Positions 33,782 to 62,427 of a stretch of DNA of 64,000 nucleotides are shown piece after piece. The DNA lies in IMG/VR virus record IMGVR_UViG_3300045988_182554, positions 1-64,000 of that record. The stretch is one strand, 5' to 3'. The notes below the pieces were generated by a model. The model was not told the DNA's origin. It did no database searches and saw only the letters and a list, made by a program, of their open reading frames with translations. The translations under genes were made by a program, and so were the position numbers. The DNA is from a virus. Each line of letters opens with the position of its first letter. Position 1 is the stretch's first letter.

Positions 33782-33864
33782 AGCCCTAATAAGATAAAAA
33801 TTGTGCCCTGACGGCATCTGAATTGGATGCTGCCGGGGCATTTTTGTTGTTAGGAGATATAGCT

Positions 33865-37563: not shown

Positions 37564-37619
37564 TGATTTTTACACCTCCGATGTTACGGCATCGGGGGTT
37601 TTGTTTTTGGGAGGATACT

Positions 37620-39440: not shown

Positions 39441-40494
39441 TACTTCCGGGTGGAAGGAATTCAAACTCGGATATATTATGGTTGAAAATAAGAAGCAAGG
39501 CCATGGTCTTTTCGAAATTGTCAATTCAGTTGCTTATCATGGCAAAGATGTTACCGAGACGGATTCGGATGATGGAATCAATTATATTACTCGGAGCAAG
39601 TTCAATAATGGATTAAAGGCAAGGGTCGTTTGCTTGGATAAATTCAAGGTGAATCCTGCAGGAACCATTTCTTTCGGCGCAGAAAACGCAGATTTTTTCT
39701 ACCAAACGGAGCCTTATATCACTGGCAACAAAATGTATTATATCAACACGACTGCATTATCGGAGCGTGCTTGCCGTTTCCTTAAAAGCATTTTGGAAGC
39801 GACATTTACAGCCAACTATTCTTTCTCCGACGGTATGATTCCGGCCAGAATTTATGATGAGTGCATCAAACTTCCCGCCACCCCTAACGGAGCCCCCGAT
39901 TGGGCTTATATGGAATCCTACATGGCAAACCTTGAAACCAAAGTCGCCGAGTTGCTGACCCTGCTACAGGCTGCGAAGGATGCGGAGAAGAAAAAGGTGG
40001 ATACGAGGGAGTGGGGAGAGTTCCGGGTGGGGGAATTGTTTGACGCGGAACGCGGAAAGGTGAAGAATATTCAGCCCTTAACCCCCGGAGCGACTCCAAT
40101 CATCGCAGCAGGCGCTTACAACCAAGGTATTGCTGGGATGTACGAGATTGACAGTGCCTATAAAAATCGAATTACCGTATCTTGTAATGGGGCAGGTTGT
40201 GGCAGTACGTTCTATCATCCATACGAGTTCAATGTGAATGGCGATGCTATTACACTTATTGAAAAGAAGTGTATGCCTGACAGAGCAAAGCAGTTTGTTG
40301 CATGCATCTTAAATGCCACTTTTACGCGCAAATTCAGTTATGAAGAAAAATGTTCCCCTCAAAAGGCTCTGGCTGAAGTAATGCGGTTGCCCATTGACAA
40401 GACCGGTCAGCCTGACTGGGCGTATATGGAGGAGTATATGAGGAAGGTGGAGAGAAAAACCGAAGGCATGCTCAATCAATTTGTCTCAACATAA
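39427..40494 (+). CDS. BcgI-B-like specificity (HsdS-like) subunit
   Basis: Two TRD halves each followed by repeated block ..PDWAYME(S/E)YM..; overlaps the A-subunit stop. Confidence 0.75.
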   Translation: MGKIDTSGWKEFKLGYIMVENKKQGHGLFEIVNSVAYHGKDVTETDSDDGINYITRSKFNNGLKARVVCLDKFKVNPAGTISFGAENADFFYQTEPYITGNKMYYINTTALSERACRFLKSILEATFTANYSFSDGMIPARIYDECIKLPATPNGAPDWAYMESYMANLETKVAELLTLLQAAKDAEKKKVDTREWGEFRVGELFDAERGKVKNIQPLTPGATPIIAAGAYNQGIAGMYEIDSAYKNRITVSCNGAGCGSTFYHPYEFNVNGDAITLIEKKCMPDRAKQFVACILNATFTRKFSYEEKCSPQKALAEVMRLPIDKTGQPDWAYMEEYMRKVERKTEGMLNQFVST

Positions 40495-40509
40495 AAGGAG
40501 GAACGGACG

Positions 40510-41271
40510 ATGTTTCTTGATAAAGAATTAGATGTAATTTGTCTTTTACAAGCTGAATTAAAACATTCAGAGCCCTTATTGTATAAAAGCAATTCTTTCT
40601 GCAAAAAGGTATCACGCTATATTAAAAGTATAAATTCATTCAGTGATAACAGTGGGCATGAAGCATTACCACCAGATTATTATTCTGATGAATTGAACTG
40701 TATGTTTGATGTAATGCGCGTAAATGATACAGAAATAAGGAAAACATATAATCCTGTAAAAATACGAGAACGCGAAATTGAACAAGAGCTAAAAGACAAA
40801 GGAATATTACAGCCGCACATGACACTAATTGTAAACTCAGAAAGTGATGATGTGCAAGAACACACATACAAAAACTACAAACGAAATTGCAAAAGAGTTT
40901 TAAATGAGCATATTGCTAAAATTGATATTTGGCAGAAAGAGCATCCTAGAATCCAGAATAAAGGTTTGCTTATATGTGATGAAACGGAATGCTATTTCGA
41001 TGGGCATGTTATATATACTGGAAACGAAACATTTGCCTATTTTGGAGAAAAAAATGTTATAGAATTACATAGACCGTGGATGGATTCAGAACTTGTAGAA
41101 AAAGCATACGATTCAAAACTGGACTTTATTATATGGTTTTCTCCATATAAACCACACAGCATTTTGCTTGAAAAATATGGTTTATCATATCCAAGTATCG
41201 TAGTTCTTGATACAAGATATAAAAGGACGGACTTTATAAATTATGACGAAGAAAAAATGTCTTCAATGTGA
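40510..41271 (+). CDS. hypothetical protein in AT-rich patch
   Basis: AAAGGAGG RBS; 253 aa; local GC far below neighbours. Confidence 0.55.
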   Translation: MFLDKELDVICLLQAELKHSEPLLYKSNSFCKKVSRYIKSINSFSDNSGHEALPPDYYSDELNCMFDVMRVNDTEIRKTYNPVKIREREIEQELKDKGILQPHMTLIVNSESDDVQEHTYKNYKRNCKRVLNEHIAKIDIWQKEHPRIQNKGLLICDETECYFDGHVIYTGNETFAYFGEKNVIELHRPWMDSELVEKAYDSKLDFIIWFSPYKPHSILLEKYGLSYPSIVVLDTRYKRTDFINYDEEKMSSM

Positions 41272-41331
41272 AATAAATATTAAGGGCAACCACGTTACTT
41301 ATTAGAACATAAATTTTAGAAGGTGATTTTT

Positions 41332-41727
41332 ATGGATTTAATGCATGTACTCTATTTTTTGGGATTTGCAATCCTTATCCTTATCGAAATTATTACATAT
41401 CCAAAAGTAAAAAAATGGAAACCAAAGTATAAAACAATTTCTGTAATGATAGCAGGTATAGTTTGTATTGGAGAATTGGCGTGTATCTTTATTGGAGAAA
41501 TACTAACTGTTGAAAAAGTAACACTAAAAATAATAGACTTACTTGAAAAAATACATGATTTTAGTAGCCCCACATTTTTGAATATTATCATACTTATTAT
41601 CACATCGATATTCTTGGTTTGGGGAGGAATGGATTTGGCATATAACAAACTAACAAGTAGCGTGAATAGGCTAACAAATTCAATGGATGAATTGCTTGGC
41701 AAAAACCATAACAACCACGCACACTGA
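41332..41727 (+). CDS. hypothetical membrane protein (AT-rich patch)
   Basis: Three hydrophobic helices; GAAGGTGA RBS. Confidence 0.5.
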   Translation: MDLMHVLYFLGFAILILIEIITYPKVKKWKPKYKTISVMIAGIVCIGELACIFIGEILTVEKVTLKIIDLLEKIHDFSSPTFLNIIILIITSIFLVWGGMDLAYNKLTSSVNRLTNSMDELLGKNHNNHAH

Positions 41728-41919
41728 CACCATCACAACTATTGCTCAAAAGACCATCGTGGTCTTTATCCTCGTTTGCAGAGGTAGCGAACTTGAACAA
41801 GCCCTTGTTGGAGCAGACAGCGACCCAAGAAAACTTGAAAAAGCTTTCGGTATGGACGAGAGATACCTTGTGGATAACCCGTATGTTGTACGAGTAGCTA
41901 ACATTAAAGGTGTGATTAT

Positions 41920-42447
41920 ATGAATGTTCTTAAAGAGTACAAAGGTTATCAGCTTGTTGAGCGTTATGATAAAACCTATATTCGTTTTTGGGGTGGTCGT
42001 GAGGAGGATATTCCTTGTGAATTTCCCATTTCAAAAACGGACGCAGAACGGGTTATCAACGAAGCGAGTGTGATTGACGAGCTGCTCTCAATTGCAAAGA
42101 CTCAAATAGAGTGGACAGCTAATTCTTTTTATAAGATTGGTATTACTGAATACATTCTGCATCGCATGAAGCTTTCTCAGACAAGAGCAGAAAAGTCTTA
42201 TGAAAAAATAGCTCGATACACTGATATTTGCAAAGAATTTTATCAGTACATCATGGATGATGAGGTGTTTACACCTAATCCAATTAAGGTTGAAGGGTTT
42301 ACAGCTCAGCATTTGGCTACCAACTATCCTCTTTCAGCTTTAGGTGCGTATAATTATTTGATTTATTTGCGTGAAATGCCCGAAAAAGCGTTGGCAGATT
42401 TGAAAGCAGGATTACCAACAAGAGAAAGGCATTTCCGTCACAGATAA
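41920..42447 (+). CDS. hypothetical protein
   Basis: 175 aa ORF overlapping the stop of the small upstream ORF (41687-41923). Confidence 0.5.
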   Translation: MNVLKEYKGYQLVERYDKTYIRFWGGREEDIPCEFPISKTDAERVINEASVIDELLSIAKTQIEWTANSFYKIGITEYILHRMKLSQTRAEKSYEKIARYTDICKEFYQYIMDDEVFTPNPIKVEGFTAQHLATNYPLSALGAYNYLIYLREMPEKALADLKAGLPTRERHFRHR

Positions 42448-49856: not shown

Positions 49857-49884
49857 TTGTGCATCTGTGCGAATTGCATATAAT
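49857..49884 (+). promoter_or_regulatory. promoter-operator copy 16 (TTGTGC-16-TATAAT; TGTGCGAATTGCA)
   Basis: Upstream of HTH-repeat gene cluster. Confidence 0.6.
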
Positions 49885-49996
49885 GCAAAATATAGAACGA
49901 AAGGCATCAAAAAACATCGTTGGTCGGGCAAAATCCGACCGAAAGGCTAGGGCGGGCTCAGTTTTGAACCTGCTCTTTCTTTTTATCGGAGGCTTT

Positions 49997-50524
49997 ATGT
50001 CAAACAAAGAAGAACGCATGAACCGCAATAAAAGCATCATCGAAGATTACAAAAATGGAAAGCCGATTTTAGAAATCGCGAGGGAATATAATCTTTCAGA
50101 AACGATGTGCTACAAGATTCTAAAAGGTACGCAGGAGCCGCCTCGTTATTTTGAAAAAAAGAGGAAGAAACTTACCACTCGAAATGAGCAAATTGTTAAA
50201 CAGTATAAAGGCGGTATGACGGCCAGAGAATTGGGCAAGATGTACGGCATTTCCATGCAGCGTATTTATGCAATCTTGCATTCGAGCGGAGAGTACGAAA
50301 GCCAAAAATACAATCATATTGAAACGGCTCTCAAAAAAGAGAAAAAGATGCGGAACCAAACTTTTCTTGATGCTTACAAGAAAAATCCTCGAAAATCGAT
50401 TATTGAGTTGAGCAGGGAGGTAAATATCAGCCCTTCACTAGGTTACCTTATCCTTCATCAAAATGGGATTTACCAGTATAACGTAAAAGCCAGAGCTAAG
50501 GAGAATAGCGAAAATGCCGATTAA
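49997..50524 (+). CDS. tandem HTH-repeat protein (3 repeats)
   Basis: GGAGG RBS; repeats KPILEIAREYNLSETMCYKIL / MTARELGKMYGISMQRIYAIL / SIIELSREVNISPSLGYLIL. Confidence 0.6.
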   Translation: MSNKEERMNRNKSIIEDYKNGKPILEIAREYNLSETMCYKILKGTQEPPRYFEKKRKKLTTRNEQIVKQYKGGMTARELGKMYGISMQRIYAILHSSGEYESQKYNHIETALKKEKKMRNQTFLDAYKKNPRKSIIELSREVNISPSLGYLILHQNGIYQYNVKARAKENSENAD

Positions 50525-51032
50525 CAAGATTACCCACGTGTGTCTAACTCATGACAAAGTCAGGGCGCGAAATGAAAAGATGCTGGAGGATGCCAAGAAC
50601 GGTATGTCCCAGGAACAGCTGGCCGAAAAGTATCAAATTTGTGTTTCTACTGTCCGATATAGTCTGAAGGACTTTTACAAAGAACAGGCCCGGCAGAGGA
50701 AAGCAAAGAAGAAAGCCTGGCAAACCCAGATGATTCATGAATATGAGATGGGCGCAAAATCTCCGGAGCTCCAGGAAAAATACGGCATCAGTGGAACGCT
50801 CTTTTATCGGATTCTTCATGCGCACGGAAAGAATGGCCGACAAATCCACAGCCAAAACCGTATCGAGACTGGCAAGAAAAGAAACGCCGAGATGGTCAGG
50901 AAATACAAAAACGGCGTTTCTGTCAAAGAGCTTGCGGAAGAATACGGGCTCAAAAAGGGAAGCGTATATCGCGCCATGAAGCGGTATAGTCCAGGCCCAG
51001 GGAAAAGTAAAAGTTGTCAAAGTGAGGAATAA
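50514..51032 (+). CDS. tandem HTH-repeat protein (3 repeats)
   Basis: AAGGAGAAT RBS; repeats MSQEQLAEKYQICVSTVRYSL / KSPELQEKYGISGTLFYRIL / VSVKELAEEYGLKKGSVYRAM. Confidence 0.65.
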   Translation: MPINKITHVCLTHDKVRARNEKMLEDAKNGMSQEQLAEKYQICVSTVRYSLKDFYKEQARQRKAKKKAWQTQMIHEYEMGAKSPELQEKYGISGTLFYRILHAHGKNGRQIHSQNRIETGKKRNAEMVRKYKNGVSVKELAEEYGLKKGSVYRAMKRYSPGPGKSKSCQSEE

Positions 51033-51036
51033 TTGC

Positions 51037-51990
51037 ATGGCTGCATCAAAGAAAGATGTTGCGAAGCAGCAGGTCAAAGAAGACCGCGAAAAGGTTCGGG
51101 AAATGTATCTTTCTGGCAAAACTGTCAAGGAAATCGCCAAGGAAACGTATTTTTCAAGCTCTTATTGCTATGCCATGGTGAGAGACCTAGCAAAAGAAAA
51201 GAATCTTGCAAAGAAAGCAAAAAGAGCACCTCTCAACGAAGCTATGATTCAAGATGCGAAAGCCGGGATGACGGTTGCTGAAATCGCAAAGAAGCATGGC
51301 GTGACCTATCAGCAGTGCTACTATACTGTTTCCGAATACGCTCAAGCTACGATTAAGAAGAACAAGAAAAAGCAGTCTGCTGCCACGAAAGTTCGCAATG
51401 CGGCTATGTTGGAAGATGCGAAAGCCGGAATGACTGATAAGGAAATCGCCAAAAAATACTTTTTGTCTCGAAGCAGTGTCCGTACCGTCCTTGCAGGGCA
51501 TTTACATACAAATTCCAAAAAGTTGGATGAAAGGCGCAAGGCGATTCTTGCGGATTATGAGGCAGGAACGTCCTCAAAAGACATCTGTGAGAAATACGGT
51601 ATTTCAAAATCCACTCTTTACAAGGACATGCGCCAAATTGGAAAAACCTGTCAGGAATACTATCACAAGGCGCTGAAAGACAAGACCAATCAAAGGAATT
51701 CCGATATTCGAAGCAAAATCGAAAGAGGGGTCTCGGTCAGCACTATTGCCAAAGAATACGGAATCTCTAAAACGGCGATTTATGAAACGTTTCATCAGGA
51801 AAATGTCAGAGCTGGAATTTTACAGAAACGCGGCCGTCCGCGAAAAAACACGGAACGTAATGCACTGATTGCTAAACGCCACAGGGAAGGCGAGAAGGTG
51901 CAGGCGCTTGCCACTGAATATAATCTCTCTGTTTCGACGGTAAACACTATTTGCAGTAGAAACAAAAATCAGAATATTGCATCACATTAA
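51037..51990 (+). CDS. tandem HTH-repeat protein (5-6 repeats)
   Basis: Repeats of G-(M/K)-(T/S)-x-x-EIAKxYG(I/V)S-x-STVY pattern throughout. Confidence 0.65.
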   Translation: MAASKKDVAKQQVKEDREKVREMYLSGKTVKEIAKETYFSSSYCYAMVRDLAKEKNLAKKAKRAPLNEAMIQDAKAGMTVAEIAKKHGVTYQQCYYTVSEYAQATIKKNKKKQSAATKVRNAAMLEDAKAGMTDKEIAKKYFLSRSSVRTVLAGHLHTNSKKLDERRKAILADYEAGTSSKDICEKYGISKSTLYKDMRQIGKTCQEYYHKALKDKTNQRNSDIRSKIERGVSVSTIAKEYGISKTAIYETFHQENVRAGILQKRGRPRKNTERNALIAKRHREGEKVQALATEYNLSVSTVNTICSRNKNQNIASH

Positions 51991-52035: not shown

Positions 52036-52950
52036 ATGACCGATGACGTATGGAATTTGATTCGATTTGTGGTGGATGGCGACATCCGAAATGCACAGAC
52101 TCAGTGCCGAATCATGCTTGAAAAGAATGTCCCTGAAAAAGATGCCCGGTTTAAGGAGGCTGAACTCAAAAAGCTGAATCTTTTGAAACCGGAACTCATT
52201 CAGCTGCCTGCCAACCTGGAAAGTCTCTTGATTGCGGAGGACGCTACAAATTTCCCGGAAAGCCGGTTCCTGCTCCGCGAGGAGGAAGAAACAGTCATCA
52301 ACAAGCTCTTGGCCACCAGAAAAGCAGCTTTAGCCATCAAGGAGCTTGGCATCCACTATACTTGCTCTTTGCTTTTGACGGGCCTTCCTGGTGTTGGTAA
52401 GACTGAATTGGCCCGCTACATTGCACACAAGGCGAATTTACCGTTTGTTTTCCTGAAATTCTCTGGCCTTGTCAATTCTGCTCTTGGCCGGACACAGCAG
52501 AACATCGGCAGAGTGTTCGATTACGCAAAGCGCACGCCTTGTGTTCTTTGTGTTGATGAAATTGATGCCATCGGAATGTGCCGTGGCAGCCGCGATGATG
52601 TCGCTGAAATGAGCCGCGTCACCATCGCATTGATGCAGGAACTTGACCGGCTCCCGAATGACGTCATTCTCATTGGCACTACAAACCGCGTCGATAACCT
52701 TGACGAAGCCCTCATTCGCCGATTCACTTTCAAACACCGCGTCAAGCCTTTAGGCGACGATGACATGAAAGAACTGTGCAAGAAGTTCCTTGCTTCGGCA
52801 GACTATCCCTTCACGGAATCCGAACTCGACGAACTCTGCCATTCGCTGCGTGAACAGCGGACGGCCAGCGCCGTTGTCAATGCCTGTACAGAACGTATCG
52901 TTGCACATATCGTATCGCAGCTGCCTAAAAATTCGGCAGATGCCGTGTAA
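52036..52950 (+). CDS. classic AAA+ ATPase
   Basis: Walker A LTGLPGVGKT, Walker B VLCVDEIDAI, sensor-1 IGTTNR, arginine-finger region LIRRF. Confidence 0.8.
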   Translation: MTDDVWNLIRFVVDGDIRNAQTQCRIMLEKNVPEKDARFKEAELKKLNLLKPELIQLPANLESLLIAEDATNFPESRFLLREEEETVINKLLATRKAALAIKELGIHYTCSLLLTGLPGVGKTELARYIAHKANLPFVFLKFSGLVNSALGRTQQNIGRVFDYAKRTPCVLCVDEIDAIGMCRGSRDDVAEMSRVTIALMQELDRLPNDVILIGTTNRVDNLDEALIRRFTFKHRVKPLGDDDMKELCKKFLASADYPFTESELDELCHSLREQRTASAVVNACTERIVAHIVSQLPKNSADAV

Positions 52951-54930: not shown

Positions 54931-54959
54931 TTGACCGGATACCACATATATGGTATAAT
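54931..54959 (+). promoter_or_regulatory. strong sigma-A-type promoter TTGACC-17-TATAAT with overlapping palindromic operator ACCACATATATGGT; two further TATATA palindromes upstream (54880-54920)
   Basis: Near-consensus hexamers; palindromes CACTATATATAGTG, GACACTATATATTGTGTC, ACCACATATATGGT; points toward the tRNA block. Confidence 0.55.
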
Positions 54960-55151
54960 ACAATTGTTCTCAGGAAGAGGAACGGCTCCTGAGACATCAA
55001 GGTTTTCCTTTCCCCAATCTTGGTCGCATGGCTTCATTTGAGCTGACACAGGTGAAGCGTGAAAATCATCCGTTTCATAGTAATATCCTTCCTTTCATAC
55101 CTCTTTATTTCCCATTTGGCGCGGGTAACTCCGCGCCAGCCGTCCAAGCAA

Positions 55152-55183
55152 ACAGCCTCCACGCGGCGGACGGTGGGCAACAG
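55152..55183 (+). repeat. conserved leader motif copy 2
   Basis: ACAGCCTCCACGCGGCGGACGGTGGGCAACAG, preceded by the same GCGCGG...CCGCGC hairpin as copy 1. Confidence 0.5.
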
Positions 55184-55223
55184 ATGTTTCCGTGTTCCGG
55201 GCATCTGGCTAATGTTTGTATTT

Positions 55224-55299
55224 GCTGGTTTAGCTCAGCTGGTAGAGCAACTGATTTGTAATCAGTCGGTCATCGGTTCAAGTCCGATTTCCAGCTCCA
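55224..55299 (+). tRNA. tRNA-Thr (anticodon TGT), two U-U mismatches at base of acceptor stem
   Basis: Hand-folded cloverleaf: GCTGGTT/TTCCAGC acceptor, GCTC/GAGC D-stem, ACTGA-TTTGTAA-TCAGT anticodon arm, ATCGG-TTCAAGT-CCGAT T-arm, CCA encoded. Confidence 0.6.
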
Positions 55300-55772
55300 G
55301 ACGCTATCCGTTGGATGTATCGAAGTCACATGATACGATGCTATACACAACATCTGGCGGACAGCATGCCACCCATTAAGGCGGCCTCCTCGTGGCGGGT
55401 GGCGGACAGCGGCTCTTGCGGCTGCTGACGAATGTCTTAGAAGCATGCAAACGTACGAGCATCCCCGTCAAGTCGGGGCGCATCCAGACGCGACACAGCC
55501 GTAAAGGCGAGATTGCTGCACGGCAACTGGTAAGTTTCGCCGCAGTCTCACACACAGCCCAACGACAACCGTTAACCCGATTTGACAGGGAATCAACGAC
55601 AGGGCTCAAAATTTGAAGTTGACCAACACCCAAGCGCTTTCTTGGATTCTCGCGTATCGTCAACGATGAGGTTCGCAAGATTGTCAGGTGGTGTGAAGAT
55701 GACATCCGGGGATGACGACCTACTAAACGGATGTCATGGCGGGGCTAAGTGAGGGTTCACCCGCAATCTTAT

Positions 55773-55847
55773 GCAGGTATCGTATAACGGCTAATACTCC
55801 GCCCCTCCAAGGCGGAGACGCGGGTTCGACCCCCGCTACTTGCTCCA
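55773..55847 (+). tRNA. tRNA-Gly (anticodon TCC), C at position 33
   Basis: GCAGGTA/TACTTGC acceptor with two G-U pairs, CCGCC-CCTCCAA-GGCGG anticodon arm, GCGGG-TTCGACC-CCCGC T-arm, CCA. Confidence 0.65.
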
Positions 55848-56119
55848 CACGTCGCAGTCACCGTACGCCACGACGTTAAACTTGGTGAGCATGGTCCACT
55901 TGTGGCCCGCAGTCCGAATGTCGATGAGACAGCCTCAAAAATAATAGACAAACAGGTGCTGTGCCTGAAAGTATTCGAAAGTCCCGGTGTTAGTCGCGAA
56001 TAAGACCGGAAAACGGTGAAGAGGGTACAATACAGAATCTATCGGCGTGGCTGCCGAATGGTGCTGGATGCGAGTTGGCTTCTCGCTCAAGGGGTGACCA
56101 GCATAAAACACCCTATCGT

Positions 56120-56195
56120 GCTCGATTAGCTCAGTTGGTAGAGCAGCGCATTCGTAACGCGCAGGTCGGCAGTTCGAACCTGCCATCAAGCCCCA
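56120..56195 (+). tRNA. tRNA-Thr (anticodon CGT)
   Basis: GCTCGAT/ATCAAGC acceptor (one mismatch), anticodon loop TTCGTAA, T-arm GGCAG-TTCGAAC-CTGCC, CCA. Confidence 0.65.
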
Positions 56196-56233
56196 TCACC
56201 AAATTAAGCGATAATAGGAAGGAGATGAATTCT

Positions 56234-56617
56234 ATGGAACAGGCAATTATCAATGTTGAAGGTACGACTACCATAGAAACCGCTGCAGCAGCAAAAAAGC
56301 TGATTGAAATGTTTGGCAACCGGAACATCCGCGCCATCGCTGTCAACCGTGTAAACGACAAGAGCGACGAGGTCATTGTTGAGCTCGATTTCGTACCGGG
56401 TTTGGCACCGCATCTGCACGGCTTCACGCTTCAGGTTAATGGCTTGACATGTGGTTATGCTGGTACTGGTCCTTCCAATCTGTATGAAGTCCTGCAGGCG
56501 GCTGGCGTGAGTGAAGCTCAGGTAGCACGCGAGGACATCACTCAGAAGAGCACAAAAACCATTCCTCTGCGCCTGGAACGCGCCGTGACTCAGTACGGCG
56601 ACTTCCAGTTTGCGTAA
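56234..56617 (+). CDS. hypothetical protein
   Basis: GGAAGGAG RBS then ATG; 127 aa. Confidence 0.5.
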   Translation: MEQAIINVEGTTTIETAAAAKKLIEMFGNRNIRAIAVNRVNDKSDEVIVELDFVPGLAPHLHGFTLQVNGLTCGYAGTGPSNLYEVLQAAGVSEAQVAREDITQKSTKTIPLRLERAVTQYGDFQFA

Positions 56618-56647
56618 CGCTATTTGGCGGGCTTGACCCGCCATCAT

Positions 56648-56723
56648 GGAGGGATAGCTTAGCTGGATAAAGCACCTGCCGCAAAGCAGGGTATCGATGG
56701 TTCGAGGCCATCTCCCTTCTCCA
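56648..56723 (+). tRNA. tRNA-like gene with 6-nt anticodon loop (possible pseudo or atypical tRNA)
   Basis: Good acceptor (GGAGGGA/TCCCTTC), D and T arms (GATGG-TTCGAGG-CCATC), CCA; anticodon arm CCTGC-CGCAAA-GCAGG has only 6 loop nt. Confidence 0.4.
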
Positions 56724-56960
56724 TCCAGACACCCTTTCGCTTCCTTTCGCCAAAGGTATCTGGGGTATTGTACTGCATTGCGTGTAGTACGGCCAATCAG
56801 GCGCGGAACTCCGAAACCATACCACGAAGAATTTTATCCTCTCCGCGCAGCATGGACATGCGATTTTACGGGGATAAATTCAAACCGAAATTGTGTCGAG
56901 TGGCGAAGACGGTTGCGACACTGGCGAAGCACATATCTGCTTCGTCAACCATCAATGAGA

Positions 56961-56991
56961 AAGCCTCCACGTGGCAGATGGTGGGCAACGC
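56961..56991 (+). repeat. conserved leader motif copy 3
   Basis: AAGCCTCCACGTGGCAGATGGTGGGCAACGC. Confidence 0.5.
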
Positions 56992-57082
56992 AGCAAAGCT
57001 GCGGCTGATTTCTTTCAAACCGGTATCTGAATAAATGCAGATAAATAGACGAAAAAATCAAAAAAGCAAAGGAGTACACAGC

Positions 57083-58153
57083 ATGAGTAATCAGAAAATC
57101 ATCAAAGCAATCGCAGGGATTGCAGCAGCCGGTATGATGGCAACTTGTCTGCCTGTCGCAGCGTTCGCAGCCACCGGTGACACCTACCATTTCTCTTTCA
57201 GCAATGGTTCTTCCCAGGACCTTGCTCCGGGCGGTTCTATGACGTTCCCGGCAAGTCAGTATGACTACGGCTACTGGATTACCCTGCAAGGCCATGGCGG
57301 GTATACCTACAAGTACTATCCCGGCGACACTCTGCCGTACGATGCAGTTGACCAGTGGTTCACCGCTGACGGCATCACTTCCTGTTATGCGGCTGAGGGT
57401 AATCCGCGTTCCATCACCATCAACTATCAGATTGACGGCAACACGGTGCTGACCGAAACTGACACCGCCACTTTCCCGGGCAGTGTTGATGGTCAGAGTG
57501 TTGAAGCCTGGACCACGGATTCCGGTGATACTTACACCGCATCCAGCAAGAGCCTGAACCATGACCGCCTGTTCTACTACCTGGGCGACGACATCCACGA
57601 CAACGTCCTGACCCTGAAAGCCACTTCTGCATCCACTCCCGATGACGGCAAGGATGACAATACCGGCGACAGCGGCACCACCACTCCTGATGACAAGGGC
57701 GACGTTGTGACTCCTGATAAGGACAACACCGGCGAAGACAACACTTCTACCGGCTCCAATAAGGGTAACGGTACTACCACCACTACTCCGACCGCTCCTC
57801 GCAAAAACGTTGAGGTTTCTGAACATGGTGAAATTGCCGCCGCTATTGCCAATGGCACCTGGGGCAATGAGTACACCGTCTGCACCAGCTGTGGCTATCA
57901 CAACTGGACCCGCAAGGGTAACGTTTACGTCTGTGACCATTGTGGTCATGAAGTCCTGACTGTTAAGGGCGCTGATGGCGTCAAGGGCTATGCTGGCACT
58001 CTGGCTGGCAACGAGCCCCAGTACGCTTCTACCTCTGAAGCTCAGGCTGCTGCTGAAAAGCGTGAAGCCGCTTATGCCGCTTCCATCGCTGCTCTGCAGG
58101 CACAGGTTGCCGCTCGTGAAGCTGCTTATGCCGCTTCCCTGGGCATCCACTAA
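57083..58153 (+). CDS. secreted Thr/Asp-rich protein with C-terminal Cys4 zinc-ribbon-like motif
   Basis: AAAGGAG RBS; signal peptide ...AAFAATG; CTSCGYHNW...CDHCGH. Confidence 0.65.
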   Translation: MSNQKIIKAIAGIAAAGMMATCLPVAAFAATGDTYHFSFSNGSSQDLAPGGSMTFPASQYDYGYWITLQGHGGYTYKYYPGDTLPYDAVDQWFTADGITSCYAAEGNPRSITINYQIDGNTVLTETDTATFPGSVDGQSVEAWTTDSGDTYTASSKSLNHDRLFYYLGDDIHDNVLTLKATSASTPDDGKDDNTGDSGTTTPDDKGDVVTPDKDNTGEDNTSTGSNKGNGTTTTTPTAPRKNVEVSEHGEIAAAIANGTWGNEYTVCTSCGYHNWTRKGNVYVCDHCGHEVLTVKGADGVKGYAGTLAGNEPQYASTSEAQAAAEKREAAYAASIAALQAQVAAREAAYAASLGIH

Positions 58154-58202
58154 TTTGCCATCCTCTAACTAACGGTAATCGATAGTTTTTCCTCCTTGCT
58201 GT

Positions 58203-58234
58203 GGGGCGGGATTTCGGTCCCGCCCCATCCTTTT
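58203..58234 (+). terminator. rho-independent terminator
   Basis: GGGGCGGGA-TTTCG-GTCCCGCCCC plus T4. Confidence 0.6.
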
Positions 58235-58236
58235 GT

Positions 58237-58325
58237 GGTCAGATGTCCGAGTGGTTTAAGGAACTGGTCTTGAAAACCAGCGATGCCGCAAACGTCCGTG
58301 GGTTCGAATCCCACTCTGGCCGCCA
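58237..58325 (+). tRNA. tRNA-Ser (anticodon TGA)
   Basis: Class II: 3-bp D-stem, CTGGT-CTTGAAA-ACCAG anticodon arm, long variable arm, GTGGG-TTCGAAT-CCCAC, CCA. Confidence 0.75.
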
Positions 58326-58438
58326 TGTTTGCCGGGACTTCCCAGCTTTTTTGTTTTTGTGAGCAGCACAAGGCAACAGATTGCTATATCGAATAGGGTT
58401 GTGTATACTAGAGAAAAAGCAGATTAAGAGGATACGCC

Positions 58439-59143
58439 ATGACAAAACAGTCTGACATTGAGATGGTTGCCAAAGCCAGAGCTTGGGCTGTTAAGGCTCA
58501 TGCCGGGCAAAAAGACAGGGCTGGGAAGGATTATTTCAAAGCGCACGTTACGGTTGTAGCAGAAGGCGTAAAAGGTGACCCAATAGCCGAGGCTGTAGCA
58601 TTTCTGCATGATACAGTCGAAGATACGTCCGTTACAATAGAAGACATCAGAACGGGGTTTCCAAAAGAGGTTGCTGACGCTGTGAGTGCGTTGACCCATA
58701 GCAAGGGTATATCGTATGCTGAATATCTTTGGTATATTCAGCAAAATTCGATTGCTGTCAAAGTAAAGCTCTCGGACCTTCGCAGCAATATGGACTTAAC
58801 CAGGCTCCCTCACACTCCAACTGAAAGGGACTTGGAAAGAACCAGAAAATACAAGCGGGCATATACGATACTGTCATCGAGAGAAGGTATAAGCGCAGTT
58901 AATCCGTATGCACTGTACGACTACTTGCTGGCAAACAACTGGAGCGTCAAAAGGAAAAGCACGAGGACTCCCGTTCTGGAAACAACGAATGGCTCAGCTG
59001 AAATCAAGGTGCCCATCGACCTGGCTTTGGCTGACTATGAGTCCAGGATGGCTGAGGCTTTAAGCGAGTTGTGTTCGTGTGAGGACATACCGTTCTCGAA
59101 TGCAATAGCGCGGATTACTGCTTGGAGACCGGTCAAACAATGA
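58439..59143 (+). CDS. small alarmone hydrolase (RelA/SpoT-type HD domain) fused to about 100-aa C-terminal domain
   Basis: HAGQKDRAGKDYFKAHVTVVA ... LHDTVEDT HD-domain signature of (p)ppGpp hydrolases. Confidence 0.75.
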   Translation: MTKQSDIEMVAKARAWAVKAHAGQKDRAGKDYFKAHVTVVAEGVKGDPIAEAVAFLHDTVEDTSVTIEDIRTGFPKEVADAVSALTHSKGISYAEYLWYIQQNSIAVKVKLSDLRSNMDLTRLPHTPTERDLERTRKYKRAYTILSSREGISAVNPYALYDYLLANNWSVKRKSTRTPVLETTNGSAEIKVPIDLALADYESRMAEALSELCSCEDIPFSNAIARITAWRPVKQ

Positions 59144-59573
59144 GCGCGGGCCTGCCATTATTTTTACGAAAAGCCTTGACTTTGGCTTTTACATATTGTA
59201 TAATTAAGACGCTGAATTTGATGAAAGGAAAATTGCACGATGTTTGCTGCTATGATAAACAAACAGAATAAATTGCAAAAGCTGTGGAGCAATTGGAATC
59301 TCTTCGGCTGTTTTGTGTTGTCTGTTTGTGCAAATCATAGTGCAGTGATGGTTGAATAAAATCATCCAAGTATCGGTTGTTTTCCATACTCTGCACGATA
59401 TGAGCACCTGTCAGACGCACAACGCCTGATGGGTGCTTTTTTGATGCAGAAAATCAGAATCAGGTCACTCTAATGCCGCTGGAGTGAATTCCAGCCAGGC
59501 TTATTAAAGTGTATGCTATTATACATAATGTATATTCGAGGATTCGCCAAGCGGTAAGGCACGGGAGATACCA

Positions 59574-59762
59574 ATGGCAACTCAGCGCAAAACTGCCGTT
59601 ATCTACGTCGAGGTCGGCGCAGACAAGAAGCAGGTCAAATTGGAGGACATCCAGAAGGCGGTCAAGGCTGTCGAAGGCACCAAGAATGCCTACGTCAACG
59701 CTGCCGACGCCGCAGTGTATTGTGTCGATGCTGACGGCAAGACCACGAAGGTCGAGCTGTAA
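59574..59762 (+). CDS. small hypothetical protein
   Basis: 62 aa with GGGAGAT RBS. Confidence 0.4.
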   Translation: MATQRKTAVIYVEVGADKKQVKLEDIQKAVKAVEGTKNAYVNAADAAVYCVDADGKTTKVEL

Positions 59763-59801
59763 AGCGTCTTTTCCCGTTGCCCGTTAAGCGGACGACTTCG
59801 T

Positions 59802-59877
59802 GGGAGTTTAGCTCAGCTGGGAGAGTATCTGCCTTACGAGCAGAGGGTCAGTGGTTCGAGTCCGCCAATTCCCACCA
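59802..59877 (+). tRNA. tRNA-Val (anticodon TAC)
   Basis: GGGAGTT/AATTCCC acceptor, TCTGC-CTTACGA-GCAGA anticodon arm, T-loop TTCGAGT, CCA. Confidence 0.65.
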
Positions 59878-59952
59878 AAGGTTCCTGGCTTCCTAGAAAA
59901 AGCCAGTGGTGGAGCTGATGGGTTAATACCATCACAAAACAGTGCATGTGCT

Positions 59953-60372
59953 GCCAATCACATGCCTTTCATGGGCCCGTAATGGTTTTCGACAGGGTAT
60001 GGAAGATTTCATGTCGCGGGTATGGTTCCGCCTCAAGGACCACCTTAAAAAGTAACTGACAACAATCGTTACGCTTCTCCTATCGCTGCTTAATTAAGCA
60101 GACGGAGACCAAAACAACGCACCATCTCGCGGGTAAGCGTGTGAGGTTCAAAGGTACGCAAGATATGTACGGCGCAGAATAAAACCGGAACCGTCTGAAG
60201 TCCAAGTACACCAAGACGTAAATCATGGTGAGCGTGGTCATCTGTCCGCTGCAAAAGGTTTGCCACACGACCAGACAAACAGTCCAAAGTTGTCAATCAT
60301 GTGACTATCGCGTAAGTAATCATGGAATTGGATATATGCTGGACACGAGTTCGACTCTCGTCGGGTCCACCA
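59953..60372 (+). ncRNA. ssrA: tmRNA (ssrA)
   Basis: 5' GGGCCCGTAATGGTTTTCGACAGGG pairs with 3' GGACACGAGTTCGACTCTCGTCGGGTCCACCA (tRNA-like domain, E. coli-like); internal tag frame GAC AAC AAT CGT TAC GCT TCT CCT ATC GCT GCT TAA. Confidence 0.8.
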
Positions 60373-60427
60373 GAATAGCGTATTTACGCTATATTTTAAT
60401 TTAGGGCGGTGCAAAAACCGCCATCAT

Positions 60428-60504
60428 GCTCCCGTAGCTCAGTTGGTTAGAGCATCTGACTGTTAATCAGAGGGTCGTCCGTTCGAACCGGACCGGAAGC
60501 GCCA
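60428..60504 (+). tRNA. tRNA-Asn (anticodon GTT)
   Basis: TCTGA-CTGTTAA-TCAGA anticodon arm, GTCCG-TTCGAAC-CGGAC T-arm, CCA. Confidence 0.7.
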
Positions 60505-60507
60505 TTT

Positions 60508-60584
60508 GCCGAATTAACTCAGTTGGCTAGAGTAGCTGACTCTTAATCAGAATGTCCGGGGTTCGAATCCCCGATTCGGCACCA
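60508..60584 (+). tRNA. tRNA-Lys (anticodon CTT)
   Basis: GCCGAAT/ATTCGGC acceptor, anticodon loop CTCTTAA, CGGGG-TTCGAAT-CCCCG, CCA. Confidence 0.7.
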
Positions 60585-60587
60585 TAA

Positions 60588-60663
60588 GGGCCATTAGCTC
60601 AACTGGCAGAGCGGGCGGCTCATAACCGCTTGGCTGGTGGTTCAATCCCACCATGGCCCACCA
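60588..60663 (+). tRNA. tRNA-Met or tRNA-Ile2 (anticodon CAT), elongator-type
   Basis: GGGCCAT/ATGGCCC acceptor (1-72 paired), anticodon loop CTCATAA, GGTGG-TTCAATC-CCACC, CCA. Confidence 0.75.
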
Positions 60664-60730
60664 AAATTTTGATGCAAAGCGTGCCGGTGTCAAAATAATC
60701 AATCCGCATTCCCGAGCACAATGTGGTAGA

Positions 60731-60806
60731 CGCGCAACAAGTGCTCGTAACTCAATCGGTAGAGTACCCGACTTTTAATCGGGGTGTTCGGGATTCGATT
60801 TCCCGC
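60731..60806 (+). tRNA. tRNA-Lys (anticodon TTT)
   Basis: CCCGA-CTTTTAA-TCGGG anticodon arm, CGGGA-TTCGATT-TCCCG, CCA. Confidence 0.7.
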
Positions 60807-60847
60807 GAGCGCACCATGCCCGGCAGAGCATTATCTGCCACTTTTGT

Positions 60848-60923
60848 GGGTGTATAGCTCAGTAGGCAGAGCGGCGGACCGTTAATCCGTTTGTCGCAGG
60901 TTCAAATCCTGCTACGCCCGCCA
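60848..60923 (+). tRNA. tRNA-Asn (anticodon GTT), C33 variant
   Basis: GCGGA-CCGTTAA-TCCGT anticodon arm, GCAGG-TTCAAAT-CCTGC, CCA. Confidence 0.6.
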
Positions 60924-60926
60924 TAA

Positions 60927-61004
60927 GCTCCTCTGGTGAAATTGGCAGACACAGTGCGTTCAAACCGCACCGTTTTGAGGGTTCGAATCCCTCGGGGAGT
61001 ACCA
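60927..61004 (+). tRNA. atypical tRNA with anticodon CAA (Leu codon UUG) but class I short variable arm; discriminator A73
   Basis: GTGCG-TTCAAAC-CGCAC anticodon arm, 6-nt variable region, GAGGG-TTCGAAT-CCCTC, CCA. Confidence 0.5.
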
Positions 61005-61033
61005 TGTCCGGCAGTACAACAACTGCCATTTAT

Positions 61034-61109
61034 GGGTTGTTAGCTCAGTTGGCAGAGCAACAGACCGTTAATCCGTAGGCCGCAGGTTCGAATCCTGCAC
61101 AACCCGCCA
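61034..61109 (+). tRNA. tRNA-Asn (anticodon GTT), third copy with anticodon-stem mismatch
   Basis: ACAGA-CCGTTAA-TCCGT, GCAGG-TTCGAAT-CCTGC, CCA. Confidence 0.55.
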
Positions 61110-61112
61110 TAT

Positions 61113-61187
61113 GCTCCAGTGGCGAAACTGGCAAACGCGGCGGCTTTAAGTCCCGTTTTATTCTGGGTTCAACTCCCAGCTGGAGTA
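61113..61187 (+). tRNA. atypical tRNA with anticodon TAA (Leu codon UUA), class I shape, no encoded CCA
   Basis: GCGGC-TTTAAGT-CCCGT anticodon arm with C-C mismatch, CTGGG-TTCAACT-CCCAG, discriminator A. Confidence 0.45.
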
Positions 61188-61195
61188 TCTATATA

Positions 61196-61271
61196 GGGGT
61201 GTAGCTCAAGTGGTAGAGCAGCGGTCTCCAAAACCGCTTGTTGCATGTTCGAGTCGTGTTACCCCTGCCAC
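61196..61271 (+). tRNA. tRNA-Trp (anticodon CCA)
   Basis: AGGGGTG/TACCCCT acceptor (A1-U72), GCGGT-CTCCAAA-ACCGC, CCA. Confidence 0.7.
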
Positions 61272-61640
61272 AATAAGAAAAGCCGTCCTCACATAAGAGG
61301 CAGCTTTTTGTTTTGGAGAGTATTCAGACCAAAAAAACTAAACCACAAGTTGATTGCGAACTTGCGAAAACATGGTATAATAATATCAGAACGAAACGAA
61401 AGGAGATACCCCAAAATGCTGTGCAACACTGTTAATGTCATGTCGTATGAGTATAGTTACGAATATTCTGAGTTCATGTCCTTTGAACGCAGTTTTATTT
61501 CTCATACTCCTCGACAGGCAAAAACAGACCATGTACAGATGCGGTGCGTCTTCTAAGCGATAACTGCATGTCATAGCTGCTTGTCGAGATTTCGGCAGGC
61601 AGCTTTTTTGTTGCCTGCAATACAGAAAGGCAGCAAGAAA

Positions 61641-61862
61641 ATGAACGTTCCTACTATCGATATTCAGAAAACCGGTGCCAACATTAAGACGCTGCGAAAA
61701 GCAGCAGGTATCAAGGTGAAAGATGTGGCAGATACACTCGGCGTATCCACGCAGGCAGTTGCCAAATGGCAAGCTGGAACCGCGCTTCCAACCATTGATA
61801 ACCTTGTGATATTAGCAGCGATGCTGGATACCAAGATAGATGACATCTTAGTCATCGCATAA
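61641..61862 (+). CDS. XRE-family HTH transcriptional regulator (74 aa)
   Basis: IKTLRKAAGIKVKDVADTLGVSTQAVAKWQAG classic XRE HTH. Confidence 0.65.
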   Translation: MNVPTIDIQKTGANIKTLRKAAGIKVKDVADTLGVSTQAVAKWQAGTALPTIDNLVILAAMLDTKIDDILVIA

Positions 61863-61891
61863 ACCCTCGCCGCAGGATTGCGGCTATATAT

Positions 61892-61971
61892 GGCCCGTTG
61901 GACGAATTGGTAGAGTTGCCGCCCTTTCAAGGCGGAGGTTATTGTGGGTTCGAAACCCACACGGGTCACCA
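61892..61971 (+). tRNA. tRNA-Glu (anticodon TTC), long (8-nt) variable region
   Basis: CCGCC-CTTTCAA-GGCGG anticodon arm, GTGGG-TTCGAAA-CCCAC, CCA. Confidence 0.6.
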
Positions 61972-61972
61972 T

Positions 61973-62048
61973 GCTTCTGTAGCTCAGTTGGTAGAGCAGC
62001 GGTCTGAAGAGCCACGTGCAGTTGGTTCAATTCCAACCGGAAGCACCA
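61973..62048 (+). tRNA. tRNA-Phe (anticodon GAA)
   Basis: GCTTCTG/CGGAAGC acceptor, anticodon loop CTGAAGA, GTTGG-TTCAATT-CCAAC, CCA. Confidence 0.7.
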
Positions 62049-62051
62049 CAT

Positions 62052-62136
62052 GTGTCGGTATGCAAGTGGATAAAGCAAGCAGTCTGTAAAACTGTTCCGT
62101 TACGGTTCGCTGGTTCGAATCCAGTCCGACACACCA
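62052..62136 (+). tRNA. tRNA-Tyr (anticodon GTA), class II
   Basis: GTGTCGG/CCGACAC acceptor, GCAGT-CTGTAAA-ACTGT, long variable arm, CCA. Confidence 0.7.
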
Positions 62137-62140
62137 ATAT

Positions 62141-62214
62141 GGCCCCTTCGACAAATTGGTCCAAGTCACCACGCTTTCACCGTGGAGTTAGCAGTTCGAG
62201 TCTGCTAGGGGTCA
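62141..62214 (+). tRNA. tRNA-Glu (anticodon TTC), second copy, no encoded CCA
   Basis: CCACG-CTTTCAC-CGTGG, AGCAG-TTCGAGT-CTGCT. Confidence 0.6.
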
Positions 62215-62246
62215 CTACGTCGCACCTACGTTAAAAGGTGCATTAT

Positions 62247-62336
62247 GCAGAGGTCGCCTAACGGTAGGGCAGCAGCTTGCTAAGCTGCCGTCGCGGAAAT
62301 CGCGGCATGTGAGTTCGAATCTCACCCTCTGCGCCA
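62247..62336 (+). tRNA. tRNA-Ser (anticodon GCT)
   Basis: GCAGAGG/CCTCTGC acceptor, GCAGC-TTGCTAA-GCTGC, long variable arm, GTGAG-TTCGAAT-CTCAC, CCA. Confidence 0.75.
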
Positions 62337-62339
62337 TCT

Positions 62340-62427
62340 GCTTGCTTGTTCGAGTGGTTGATGAAATCGGTCCAGAAAACCGACGATGGGAGACTGTCCG
62401 AAGGTTCGAATCCTTCAGCAAGCGCCA
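62340..62427 (+). tRNA. class II tRNA-like gene, anticodon ambiguous (AGA if 7-nt loop with C33; loop may be 9 nt)
   Basis: GCTTGCT/AGCAAGC acceptor, 3-bp D-stem, long variable arm, GAAGG-TTCGAAT-CCTTC, CCA. Confidence 0.5.

Follow-up and report, generated by a model that had tools for sequence, protein, structure and literature searches.

Short-arm tRNA-Leu genes and tRNAs altered at position 33 in the tRNA-tmRNA island of a large phage

Introduction

Phage tRNA islands are now viewed as weapons against the tRNA-cutting defences of bacteria, and few concrete designs of resistant tRNAs are known. Here we describe an island of 21 tRNA genes and one gene for transfer-messenger RNA (tmRNA, ssrA) at positions 55224-62427, all on the + strand, of a 64,000-nucleotide stretch of viral DNA (positions 1 to 64,000 of the IMG/VR record IMGVR_UViG_3300045988_182554), the whole of which is called the window. 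Two of its tRNA-Leu lack the long variable arm, one tRNA-Gly, two tRNA-Asn and one tRNA-Ser carry C33 in place of U33, and a Cys-like tRNA has an anticodon loop of 6 nucleotides (nt) without position 33. These odd genes have well-defined structures, and are inherited and conserved in a family of related phages. The island itself is of a known kind; its high load of U33 changes and the Cys-like tRNA without U33 are new. A literature search returned no description of short-arm phage tRNA-Leu, of C33 phage tRNAs or of a 6-nt anticodon loop, which is no proof of absence.

Taken as a whole, the reading that we hold to be somewhat on the probable side is that a very large tailed phage here carries its tRNA-tmRNA island, and that the island would provide a back-up set for translation with members lacking features recognised by host tRNA-targeting enzymes. 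Expression, charging and evasion of host enzymes are what we infer here from the sequences. Three testable designs are on offer, namely loss of the arm in tRNA-Leu, change of U33 to C, and deletion of U33, and each is backed by natural sequence variation.

Results and Discussion

A conserved array of tRNA genes

The original prediction, made by hand folding of the sequence, had listed about 21 tRNA genes with their anticodons and a tmRNA at 55224-62427, and exactly that list was returned by ARAGORN and Rfam. All 21 tRNA genes score 46-68 bits against a gathering threshold of 29 (RF00005), and the tmRNA scores 84.6 bits against 47 (RF00023); per-gene E-values run from 1e-7 to 1e-13. No tRNA-type gene was found by ARAGORN elsewhere in the window, and the density of the array is far beyond chance. 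ARAGORN drew a cloverleaf for all 21 genes, in line with the canonical elongator design (7-bp acceptor stem, D arm with G18G19, 5-bp anticodon stem, T loop of the GTTCRA type), and upheld the atypical structures instead of turning them into canonical ones. An anticodon loop of 7 nt with U33 is present in 16 of the 21 genes; the other five are the 6-nt-loop gene starting at 56648 and the C33 genes starting at 55773, 60848, 61034 and 62340. The CCA end is encoded in 19 of the 21, so that its absence from some genes, also part of the prediction, is confined to tRNA-Leu(UAA) at 61112 and the tRNA-Glu at 62141.

We used the HD-domain gene inside the array (58439-59143, + strand; RelA/SpoT-type HD_4, PF13328, E-value 3.6e-9) as an anchor for finding relatives. 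Its protein retrieved 80 syntenic IMG/VR contigs at 61-99% protein identity, some of them 222-389 kb long, and these relatives were numbered as loci L001 onward. According to ARAGORN the gene order of the array is constant throughout the phage family in all fetched loci, with synteny in more than 80 related contigs. The view that the odd genes are redundant, imperfect copies did not hold: they are conserved across the family, with compensatory changes in their stems. On this comparison of relatives, the odd tRNAs are heritable features and not reading errors.

The HD-domain protein is itself kept in all relatives, at the same 61-99% identity, and is a candidate for a small alarmone hydrolase.

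tRNA-Leu without the long arm

The genes for tRNA-Leu(CAA), at 60927-61004, and tRNA-Leu(UAA), at 61112-61189, are each 78 nt long, with a 3-bp D stem, a variable region of 6 nt and A73. The hand-folded class I shape of the two is thus confirmed by the ARAGORN drawings, and neither has the long variable arm of at least 10 nt that defines a class II tRNA-Leu. Leu(CAA) has G1.U72, C2-G71, A14, A15, G18, G19 and A20a, a variable region ending in U48, and A73 followed by an encoded CCA; Leu(UAA) has G1.U72, a C31.C39 mismatch and G37, and lacks an encoded CCA. E. coli leucyl-tRNA synthetase (LeuRS) needs A73, A14, A15-U48, G18G19 and A20a, but neither the long arm nor the anticodon; C2-G71 in tRNA-Leu acts against seryl-tRNA synthetase, and truncated tRNA-Leu without the arm is still charged (PMC9976931). 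As read from the genes, both short-arm tRNA-Leu of the window keep every LeuRS determinant defined in E. coli.

The same features are maintained in the relatives, whose short-arm variants (CAA; UAA or UAU; AAG) can be aligned with gaps confined to the variable region. Their cloverleaf is 98% paired, with changes on both sides at 13 of 20 pairs, and A73, A14, A15, G18G19, A20a, U48 and C2-G71 are invariant or nearly so in this alignment of short-arm tRNA-Leu (alignment A1).

A wider scan of viral contigs, in which a Leu-type D loop and a T loop were required at class I distance and the anticodon was left unspecified, gave at least 120 matches. Among the matches listed, to which all counts of the wider scan refer, 112 new loci carry at least 153 tRNA-Leu of 74-78 nt (124 distinct) with all six Leu anticodons (ARAGORN). 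At least 131 of these short-arm genes sit in 95 loci unrelated to the family of the window, beside 53 long-arm tRNA-Leu. The architecture is fitted by 122 distinct sequences, with A73 in 119, U48 in 118, and A14-A15 and the GG in all; every one of the 122 has a Leu anticodon although the pattern left the anticodon free. The variable region, U-rich in this wider class, has 5 or 6 nt in 120 of the 122, G1.U72 is found in 47, as in both genes of the window, and pairing in the stems amounts to 96-99%, each position showing 4-6 types of pair. Short-arm genes also occur, annotated as plain tRNA-Leu, in Acinetobacter phage AM101 (one gene of 78 nt, MH165274.2, 77196-77273) and in Vibrio phage vB_ValS_X1 (two genes of 77 nt each, MT442039.1, 45867-45943 and 45981-46057). 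By these comparisons the two genes of the window are ordinary members of a large, widespread class of phage tRNAs. The original prediction had parsed their shape correctly, and its view of them as oddities has to be given up.

The breadth of this class is the most useful by-product of the analysis. Cultured Vibrio and Acinetobacter phages with known hosts carry such genes, and both their charging by LeuRS and their resistance to class-II-specific toxins of the AbiEii and MenT type can be tested now. Toxins that prefer class II tRNAs, such as AbiEii and MenT3, do exist; the Ser and Tyr genes of the phage keep their long arms. Animal mitochondrial tRNA-Leu offers a likeness, having no long arm and still being recognised via A73 and A14 (PMC9976931). 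The mitochondrial molecules are degenerate, however, whereas the phage tRNA-Leu keep a bacterial-type D arm (A14, A15, G18, G19, A20a), the T loop and stable stems.

tRNAs with C33

The original prediction had reported C33 in several copies, and we find C32-C33 in tRNA-Gly(UCC) at 55773-55847 (loop CCUCCAA), in two tRNA-Asn(GUU) at 60848-60923 (loop CCGUUAA) and 61034-61109 (with an A29.C41 mismatch in this genome), and in the class II tRNA-Ser(AGA) at 62340-62427 (loop CCAGAAA, thus C33 and A34). In the family as a whole, 114 of 144 copies of tRNA-Asn(GUU), 68 of 69 of tRNA-Gly(UCC) and 71 of 71 of tRNA-Ser(AGA) have C33, which relatives also show in Met(CAU), Glu(UUC) and Ser(GCU). The window keeps in addition one tRNA-Asn with U33 (60428-60504), which lies within an exchanged stretch described below.

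The loop CCAGAAA is invariant in the 71 copies of tRNA-Ser(AGA), which represent 8 distinct sequences, while 10 of 26 stem pairs are changed on both sides between clades. Likewise, the loop CCUCCAA of tRNA-Gly(UCC) is kept while 10 of 21 stem pairs show compensatory changes between clades, and the CCGUUAA loop of the C33 tRNA-Asn is also kept in the family. Because the Gly and Ser(AGA) loops do not vary while their stems co-vary, the loop sequence is, on this evidence, held by selection.

In E. coli the minimal need of tRNA-guanine transglycosylase is the motif U33-G34-U35, according to the work of Nakanishi (1994) as cited in PMC1635277. C33 in tRNA-Asn removes this motif, so that the C33 tRNA-Asn are predicted to escape queuosine modification.

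Do these changes serve the phage, or are they drift in genes kept for another reason? The alternative is a plain supply of tRNAs for codons that the host serves poorly, in which the oddities would be neutral or slightly harmful changes tolerated beside host tRNAs. The tRNAs of the array read about 47% of the codons of the window, and the set is strongly biased to A/U-rich codon boxes and to those that start with A or U, as expected from plain supply: where the first two positions are both A or U, 11 of 14 codons are read, and where both are G or C, 2 of 16 (Fisher p = 6e-4). By contrast, the A-ending codons matched by the Thr, Gly, Ser and Val tRNAs with U34 are minor ones in the window. Stem mismatches in the Thr, Asn, Phe and Leu(UAA) genes of the window would also suit drift, as would the presence of C33 in 36 of 1137 tRNAs (3.2%) of the 95 unrelated tRNA-rich phage loci, among the matches listed, which suggests a general tolerance. 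The loci of the family, however, have C33 in 33 of 181 (18%), and drift predicts neither this six-fold enrichment nor C33 loops that stay the same from clade to clade while the stems are remade, nor 122 distinct short-arm tRNA-Leu all keeping the LeuRS determinants. We regard plain supply with drift as possible, though rather doubtful.

A Cys-like tRNA with a 6-nt anticodon loop

In the gene at 56648-56723 the 6-nt anticodon loop, CGCAAA, is closed by a stem of 5 bp (CCUGC/GCAGG), and U73 and an encoded CCA are present. The loop, noticed in the original prediction, appears both in the ARAGORN drawing and in the hairpin given by RNAfold; ARAGORN calls a 2-nt 'anticodon', and the Rfam match (46.4 bits) appeared only in a more sensitive run. 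In bacterial tRNA-Cys the loop is CUGCAAA, and CGCAAA is the same loop minus U33. U73 and a GCA anticodon form the major determinants of tRNA-Cys (PMC9976931), and the gene has U73 and the bases G-C-A, but set in a 6-nt loop. We rate it as a putative Cys-type tRNA without U33, a rating that does not extend to decoding.

We searched IMG/VR with a pattern that held the D arm and the first part of the T arm fixed and left the anticodon arm free. The pattern is matched by 72 viral contigs, from at least 10 metagenome identifiers, all with an identical spacing of 16 nt. Since the span is the same in 72 of 72 matches, the length of the loop is fixed, with no 7-nt-loop version in IMG/VR. A sequencing or assembly error behind the 6-nt loop is ruled out by the same observation.

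Conservation of the gene bears on a second alternative, that some odd members are pseudogenes carried in a well-conserved module, the chief suspect being the 6-nt-loop gene, with Leu(UAA) as a possible other. Across 46 distinct aligned haplotypes the nucleotide diversity of the tRNA is 0.0034, the second lowest of 17 segments, compared with 0.007-0.012 in the flanking spacers and 0.018-0.035 in the flanking open reading frames (ORFs); the gene also keeps an intact cloverleaf, T loop, U73 and CCA. Both points speak against a pseudogene. The flanks are nevertheless almost as conserved as the gene, the close relative L001 has a copy damaged in the acceptor stem, L036 has no 6-nt-loop gene, and among the matches listed 6-nt and 8-nt loops are sporadic in other phages (7 of 1137 tRNAs). 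We know of no 6-nt anticodon loop that decodes normally. Leu(UAA) could be suspected for its C31.C39 mismatch, G37, missing CCA and the UAU anticodon of five relatives, against which stand compensatory changes between clades in its T and acceptor stems. Decay of these genes seems to us unlikely. Even if the odd tRNAs were inert, the matter would be of consequence for annotation, as such genes are routinely called normal tRNAs.

A further possibility is that the 6-nt-loop RNA acts outside translation as a mimic, either as a decoy for a nuclease or modification enzyme directed at tRNA-Cys or by binding T-box leaders through its U73-CCA end. A tRNA body with a CCA end, a loop unlikely to decode and strong sequence conservation would be in keeping with this, and 'tRNA-like stable RNAs with unknown functions' are interspersed with the tRNA genes of phage T5. 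The neighbourhood offers no evident partner gene, and we consider a mimic quite improbable.

Descent of the 56648 gene from the tRNA-Ala(UGC) that holds its position in the divergent clade was also considered. The anticodon stem is common to the two, the acceptor and T arms differ, and there is no simple mutational path between the two loops.

A proposed translational back-up set

The functional reading that we favour runs as follows. A partial decoding set would keep phage translation going when host tRNAs are scarce, cut or blocked, and the tmRNA would free ribosomes stalled on broken mRNA. The atypical tRNAs would be working variants that shed features seen by host tRNA-targeting enzymes and keep those needed for charging and decoding. 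The Leu pair would have dropped the long arm, with which LeuRS can dispense, while retaining A73, A14, A15-U48, G18G19 and A20a; the tRNA-Gly, the two tRNA-Asn and tRNA-Ser(AGA) would have exchanged U33 for C33, in Asn destroying the tRNA-guanine transglycosylase motif; and the Cys-like tRNA would do without position 33.

Several published observations agree with this proposal. The array carries Lys, Asn, Thr, Tyr, Glu, Leu, Ser and Met tRNAs, which are those most often reported as nuclease targets. Phage tRNAs with changes in the anticodon stem-loop resist host nucleases or are predicted to do so (PMC10264068; PMC11464382), and the idea of an array directed against tRNA-depleting defences fits the hypothesis put forward in the same papers. 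A counter-defence role of the array is plausible.

A number of points weigh against it. We know of no nuclease that requires U33, and C33 is tolerated by the K. lactis gamma-toxin and by colicin E5. In Leu(UAA), C31.C39 together with G37 is unusual for a reader of UUR, and UUA makes up 5% of the Leu codons in the genes of the window, so that the presence of this tRNA is not obviously accounted for by the codon needs of the phage itself. The module around the 56648 gene is itself 95-100% identical among relatives; raw identity of the tRNA thus says little and its conservation is modestly above background, to which the broken copy in L001 and the absence from L036 must be added. Finally, the HD-domain protein search in GTDB genomes gave nothing above 44% identity and hence no close relative.

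A wider version of the proposal is that phages have evolved, many times or anciently, a dedicated repertoire of toxin-proof tRNAs, with the class-I-shaped tRNA-Leu as its clearest member and the replacement or deletion of U33 added here. We put this forward tentatively, as a possibility that may well turn out to be wrong. If it were true, tRNA-Leu would be the only class II tRNA able to lose its long arm and yet keep its synthetase, bacterial defences recognising the long arm or U33 would be common and largely undiscovered, and the textbook rule of a long arm in tRNA-Leu outside animal mitochondria would fail for viruses.

Comparison with other phages

Like the window, huge phages (Al-Shayeb et al. 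2020, PMC7162821) carry many tRNAs distinct from those of the host, a tmRNA, and a type I-C CRISPR-Cas variant with a helicase in the place of Cas3. Systematic U33 changes, a 6-nt loop or short-arm tRNA-Leu are not described there, however, and in contrast the tmRNA stretch of the window differs between relatives, its first part apparently having been swapped between clades. In phage T5 about two dozen co-oriented tRNA genes likewise lie among small ORFs and the tRNA-like stable RNAs mentioned above, and for the T5 tRNA-Lys and tRNA-Tyr an ability to overcome PARIS and retron Eco7 has been demonstrated (PMC11464382, PMC11555353). Unlike the window, T5 has a normal tRNA-Leu of 85 nt, no tmRNA and no ribozymes of the hepatitis delta virus (HDV)-like kind.

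The closest published parallel in the anticodon arm is that of phage tRNAs proposed to be unaffected by the anticodon nucleases of the host (van den Berg et al. 2023, PMC10264068), in which the anticodon stem-loop also departs from the norm. Host nucleases and cleavage sites already known served as the reference for those cases; the recurrent change here is at position 33, and the loss of the Leu arm lies outside the anticodon arm.

The tmRNA and an exchanged stretch

The one-piece tmRNA gene (59973-60372, + strand) has a tRNA-Ala-like domain with G3.U70 (5' GGGCCCG pairs with CGGGTCC), an A73-CCA end and a tag ORF with a stop, which gives the tag (A)DNNRYASPIAA*; the same tag is found in L001, L027 and L066-L079. 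With the tRNA genes for Val, Asn, Lys(CUU) and Met it lies in the one stretch of the array that differs between relatives. Positions 59564-60505 (a small ORF, Val, the tmRNA and the first Asn) are 95% identical to the most divergent clade (L068), as against 70-83% in the flanks, and in most close relatives that stretch, along with Lys(CUU) and Met, gives way to a lone tRNA-Gln or to that body with an anticodon for Glu. The truncated 5' part of a tRNA-Gln(UUG), identified at 59530-59556 (+ strand) by comparison with the Gln tRNAs of relatives, marks in this alignment the recombination junction. From the high identity to L068 and the Gln remnant, the tmRNA-carrying stretch was probably acquired, apparently recently, by recombination between clades.

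Anticodons have also been switched by single bases in relatives. The short-arm Leu body changes from UAA to UAU, a reader of an Ile codon, in L036, L043, L044, L050 and L087; the Gln-type body changes from UUG to UUC, a reader of a Glu codon, in L002, L011, L022, L024, L030, L035, L040 and L062. The two Glu genes alternate between UUC and CUC.

Such switches raise the alternative of deliberate recoding or mistranslation, in which bodies charged regardless of the anticodon, the candidates being the UAU form of the Leu body and the UUC form of the Gln-type body, would insert their amino acid at other codons. That one body can carry either of two anticodons a base apart is what this alternative needs; the switched anticodons are minority alleles, though, body and anticodon agree in every tRNA of the window, and the ORFs are long in the standard code with no suppressor anticodon in the array. 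We consider it very improbable.

Stop recoding had come under discussion because HDV-like ribozymes are linked to recoded gut phages. Mis-parsed suppressor tRNAs were rejected, as the loops read CAA and UAA and there is no CUA, UCA or UUA anticodon, and recoding of stops was likewise rejected, the ORFs being long in the standard code and ending in TAA (33), TGA (26) and TAG (2).

Ribozymes and processing of the transcripts

An HDV-like ribozyme of the nested double-pseudoknot family RF02682 (50 bits against a gathering threshold of 44) at 55139-55219 on the + strand ends 4 nt 5' of the first tRNA, and is preceded by a 7-bp hairpin at about 55118-55137. A candidate sigma-70-like promoter upstream of this first ribozyme-tRNA unit, TTGACC-17-TATAAT with a TG (54931-54959, + strand), matches 11 of 12 consensus positions, the match to the consensus being its evidence. 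Two further + strand candidates for HDV-like ribozymes fall below the gathering threshold, at 55368-55439 (34.1 bits, E-value 0.0023) and, 5' of the ORF at 57085, at 56948-57015 (39.1 bits, E-value 1.6e-4); measured from the nearest tRNA, their 5' ends are 69 nt and 225 nt downstream. A fourth, above the threshold (RF02682, 58 bits), lies outside the island at 11812-11881.

The arrangement of a ribozyme upstream of a tRNA, as at 55139, recurs in L003, L051 and L055, and the L055 homologue of the 55368 candidate reaches 47.6 bits, its place being 6 nt upstream of a tRNA. In relatives generally the ribozymes lie 4-14 nt upstream of tRNAs, and once, in L068, directly 3' of a degenerate Leu(AAG)-like tRNA. 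This resembles the theta ribozymes (Kienbeck et al. 2024, PMC10879173), which are HDV-like self-cleaving ribozymes within phage tRNA arrays. Theta ribozymes, however, cleave within 5 nt of a tRNA 3' end, next to tRNAs mostly without CCA, whereas the ribozymes of the window do not have their cleavage site so placed: they are of the RF02682 type, the first lies 4 nt upstream of its tRNA, most of the tRNAs encode CCA, and there are neither suppressors nor recoding. L068 is the only relative with a theta-like, 3'-adjacent ribozyme.

HDV-type ribozymes cut at their own 5' end, and would thus sever the tRNA precursor from the upstream RNA. We envisage that the island is transcribed from the + strand in several units, that ribozymes upstream of tRNAs would cleave, and that RNase P would then take off the ribozyme leader or trim the 5' ends, after which tRNAs already carrying CCA in 19 of the 21 cases would be charged by the aminoacyl-tRNA synthetases of the host. 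Most tRNA leaders have U at -1.

Ahead of the first tRNA after each spacer, a GC-rich hairpin is followed by a short run rich in A and U, whose last base, at -1, is U (for example ...CCGCCAUCAU immediately before the tRNA); the sites are 56620-56647, 60405-60427, 60822-60847, 61016-61033, 61869-61891 and 62222-62246. With its 'CCA'-like tail the hairpin looks like the 3' end of a tRNA lying upstream, and it may serve as a signal for processing.

The phage and its CRISPR-Cas genes

Large ORFs of the window match phage DNA polymerase, helicase and methyltransferase families in a PHROG search, and 53 of 61 genes called by a codon model in the 64-kb window lie on the + strand. As phage DNA the window belongs to the 'large phage with tRNAs and ssrA' kind, and the expectation of a large-phage-type locus is borne out by these matches, by the 80 IMG/VR relatives of up to 389 kb, and by a Cascade with a helicase. 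With regard to the definition of a huge phage (hallmark genes and a genome above 200 kb), replication genes are seen and the contigs of relatives reach 222-389 kb, lengths that do not measure the window's own genome. No close deposited phage was found by megablast against INPHARED, where the matches are tRNA-sized only.

Genes for Cas5 (29884-30570), Cas8c/Csd1 (30464-32491) and Cas7 (32494-33456) are followed by that for a UvrD-like helicase of 920 amino acids in the place of Cas3, the whole spanning 29884-36585. These genes match a type I-C-variant Cascade with helicase, arranged as in huge phages, some of which have been reported to carry such a system along with many tRNAs and tmRNAs (PMC7162821). 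Cas1, Cas2 and a CRISPR array were not found within 26-44 kb around the Cas genes.

Remaining genes of the array

The other tRNA genes, all called by ARAGORN on the + strand, are nearer to the usual design. The first of the array, tRNA-Thr(UGU) at 55224-55299 (63.5 bits in Rfam), has U6.U67 and U7.U66 mismatches and an encoded CCA; tRNA-Thr(CGU) follows at 56120-56195, with C4.A69 and A31.C39 mismatches, and the class II tRNA-Ser(UGA) at 58237-58325, directly 3' of a terminator-like hairpin. Beyond tRNA-Val(UAC) (59802-59877) and the tmRNA come the U33 tRNA-Asn(GUU) already mentioned, tRNA-Lys(CUU) (60508-60584), a tRNA with anticodon CAU (60588-60663) and tRNA-Lys(UUU) (60741-60816). The CAU tRNA is an elongator Met or an Ile2 tRNA, and not an initiator, because its 1:72 pair is G-C. 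After the short-arm Leu genes lie tRNA-Trp(CCA) (61195-61270), tRNA-Glu(UUC) with an enlarged variable region of 8-9 nt (61892-61971), tRNA-Phe(GAA) with a C28.A42 mismatch (61973-62048), the class II tRNA-Tyr(GUA) (62052-62136), a second tRNA-Glu(UUC) of canonical shape without an encoded CCA (62141-62215), and the class II tRNA-Ser(GCU) (62247-62336).

The enlarged variable region of the first tRNA-Glu and the stem mismatches of several genes go beyond the original prediction. The mismatches occur in otherwise normal tRNAs, C4.A69 being found in the tRNA-Asn at 60428 as well as in tRNA-Thr(CGU). The anticodon stem of tRNA-Phe looks like a hybrid of two alleles of the family, each of which is perfectly paired in relatives. 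At the site that tRNA-Ser(UGA) occupies in other relatives, L055 has at 7976-8234 a HEARO RNA (HNH endonuclease-associated RNA and ORF family; RF02033, 92.5 bits).

Two + strand ORFs lie among the first tRNA genes. One of 127 amino acids (56234-56617), read from the sequence, has no Pfam match and is 78% identical in nucleotides to L068; the other, a gene call of about 356 amino acids (57085-58153), belongs to no Pfam family and has an N-terminal signal-like hydrophobic segment.

Other genes of the window

A nucleotidyltransferase ORF at 28352-29359 matches RlaP, the 'RNA repair pathway DNA polymerase beta family' (PF10127, E-value 4.9e-21), and may be an RNA-repair component in a tRNA-carrying phage. 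A gene of the TnpB/IS605 OrfB type lies on the - strand at 5692-6801, with OrfB_IS605, Cas12f1-like TNB and helix-turn-helix domains. At 37563-40494 there are a methyltransferase (PHROG) and a specificity subunit (Pfam Methylase_S) resembling those of type I restriction-modification, after which comes a 2-kb stretch of low G+C content (40001-42000; 36% compared with about 47%). Three consecutive ORFs at 49859-51990 consist almost wholly of repeated helix-turn-helix modules (HTH_23, HTH_28, HTH_7, Mor-like); an AAA ATPase comes next (52036-52950), shortly before the tRNA island.

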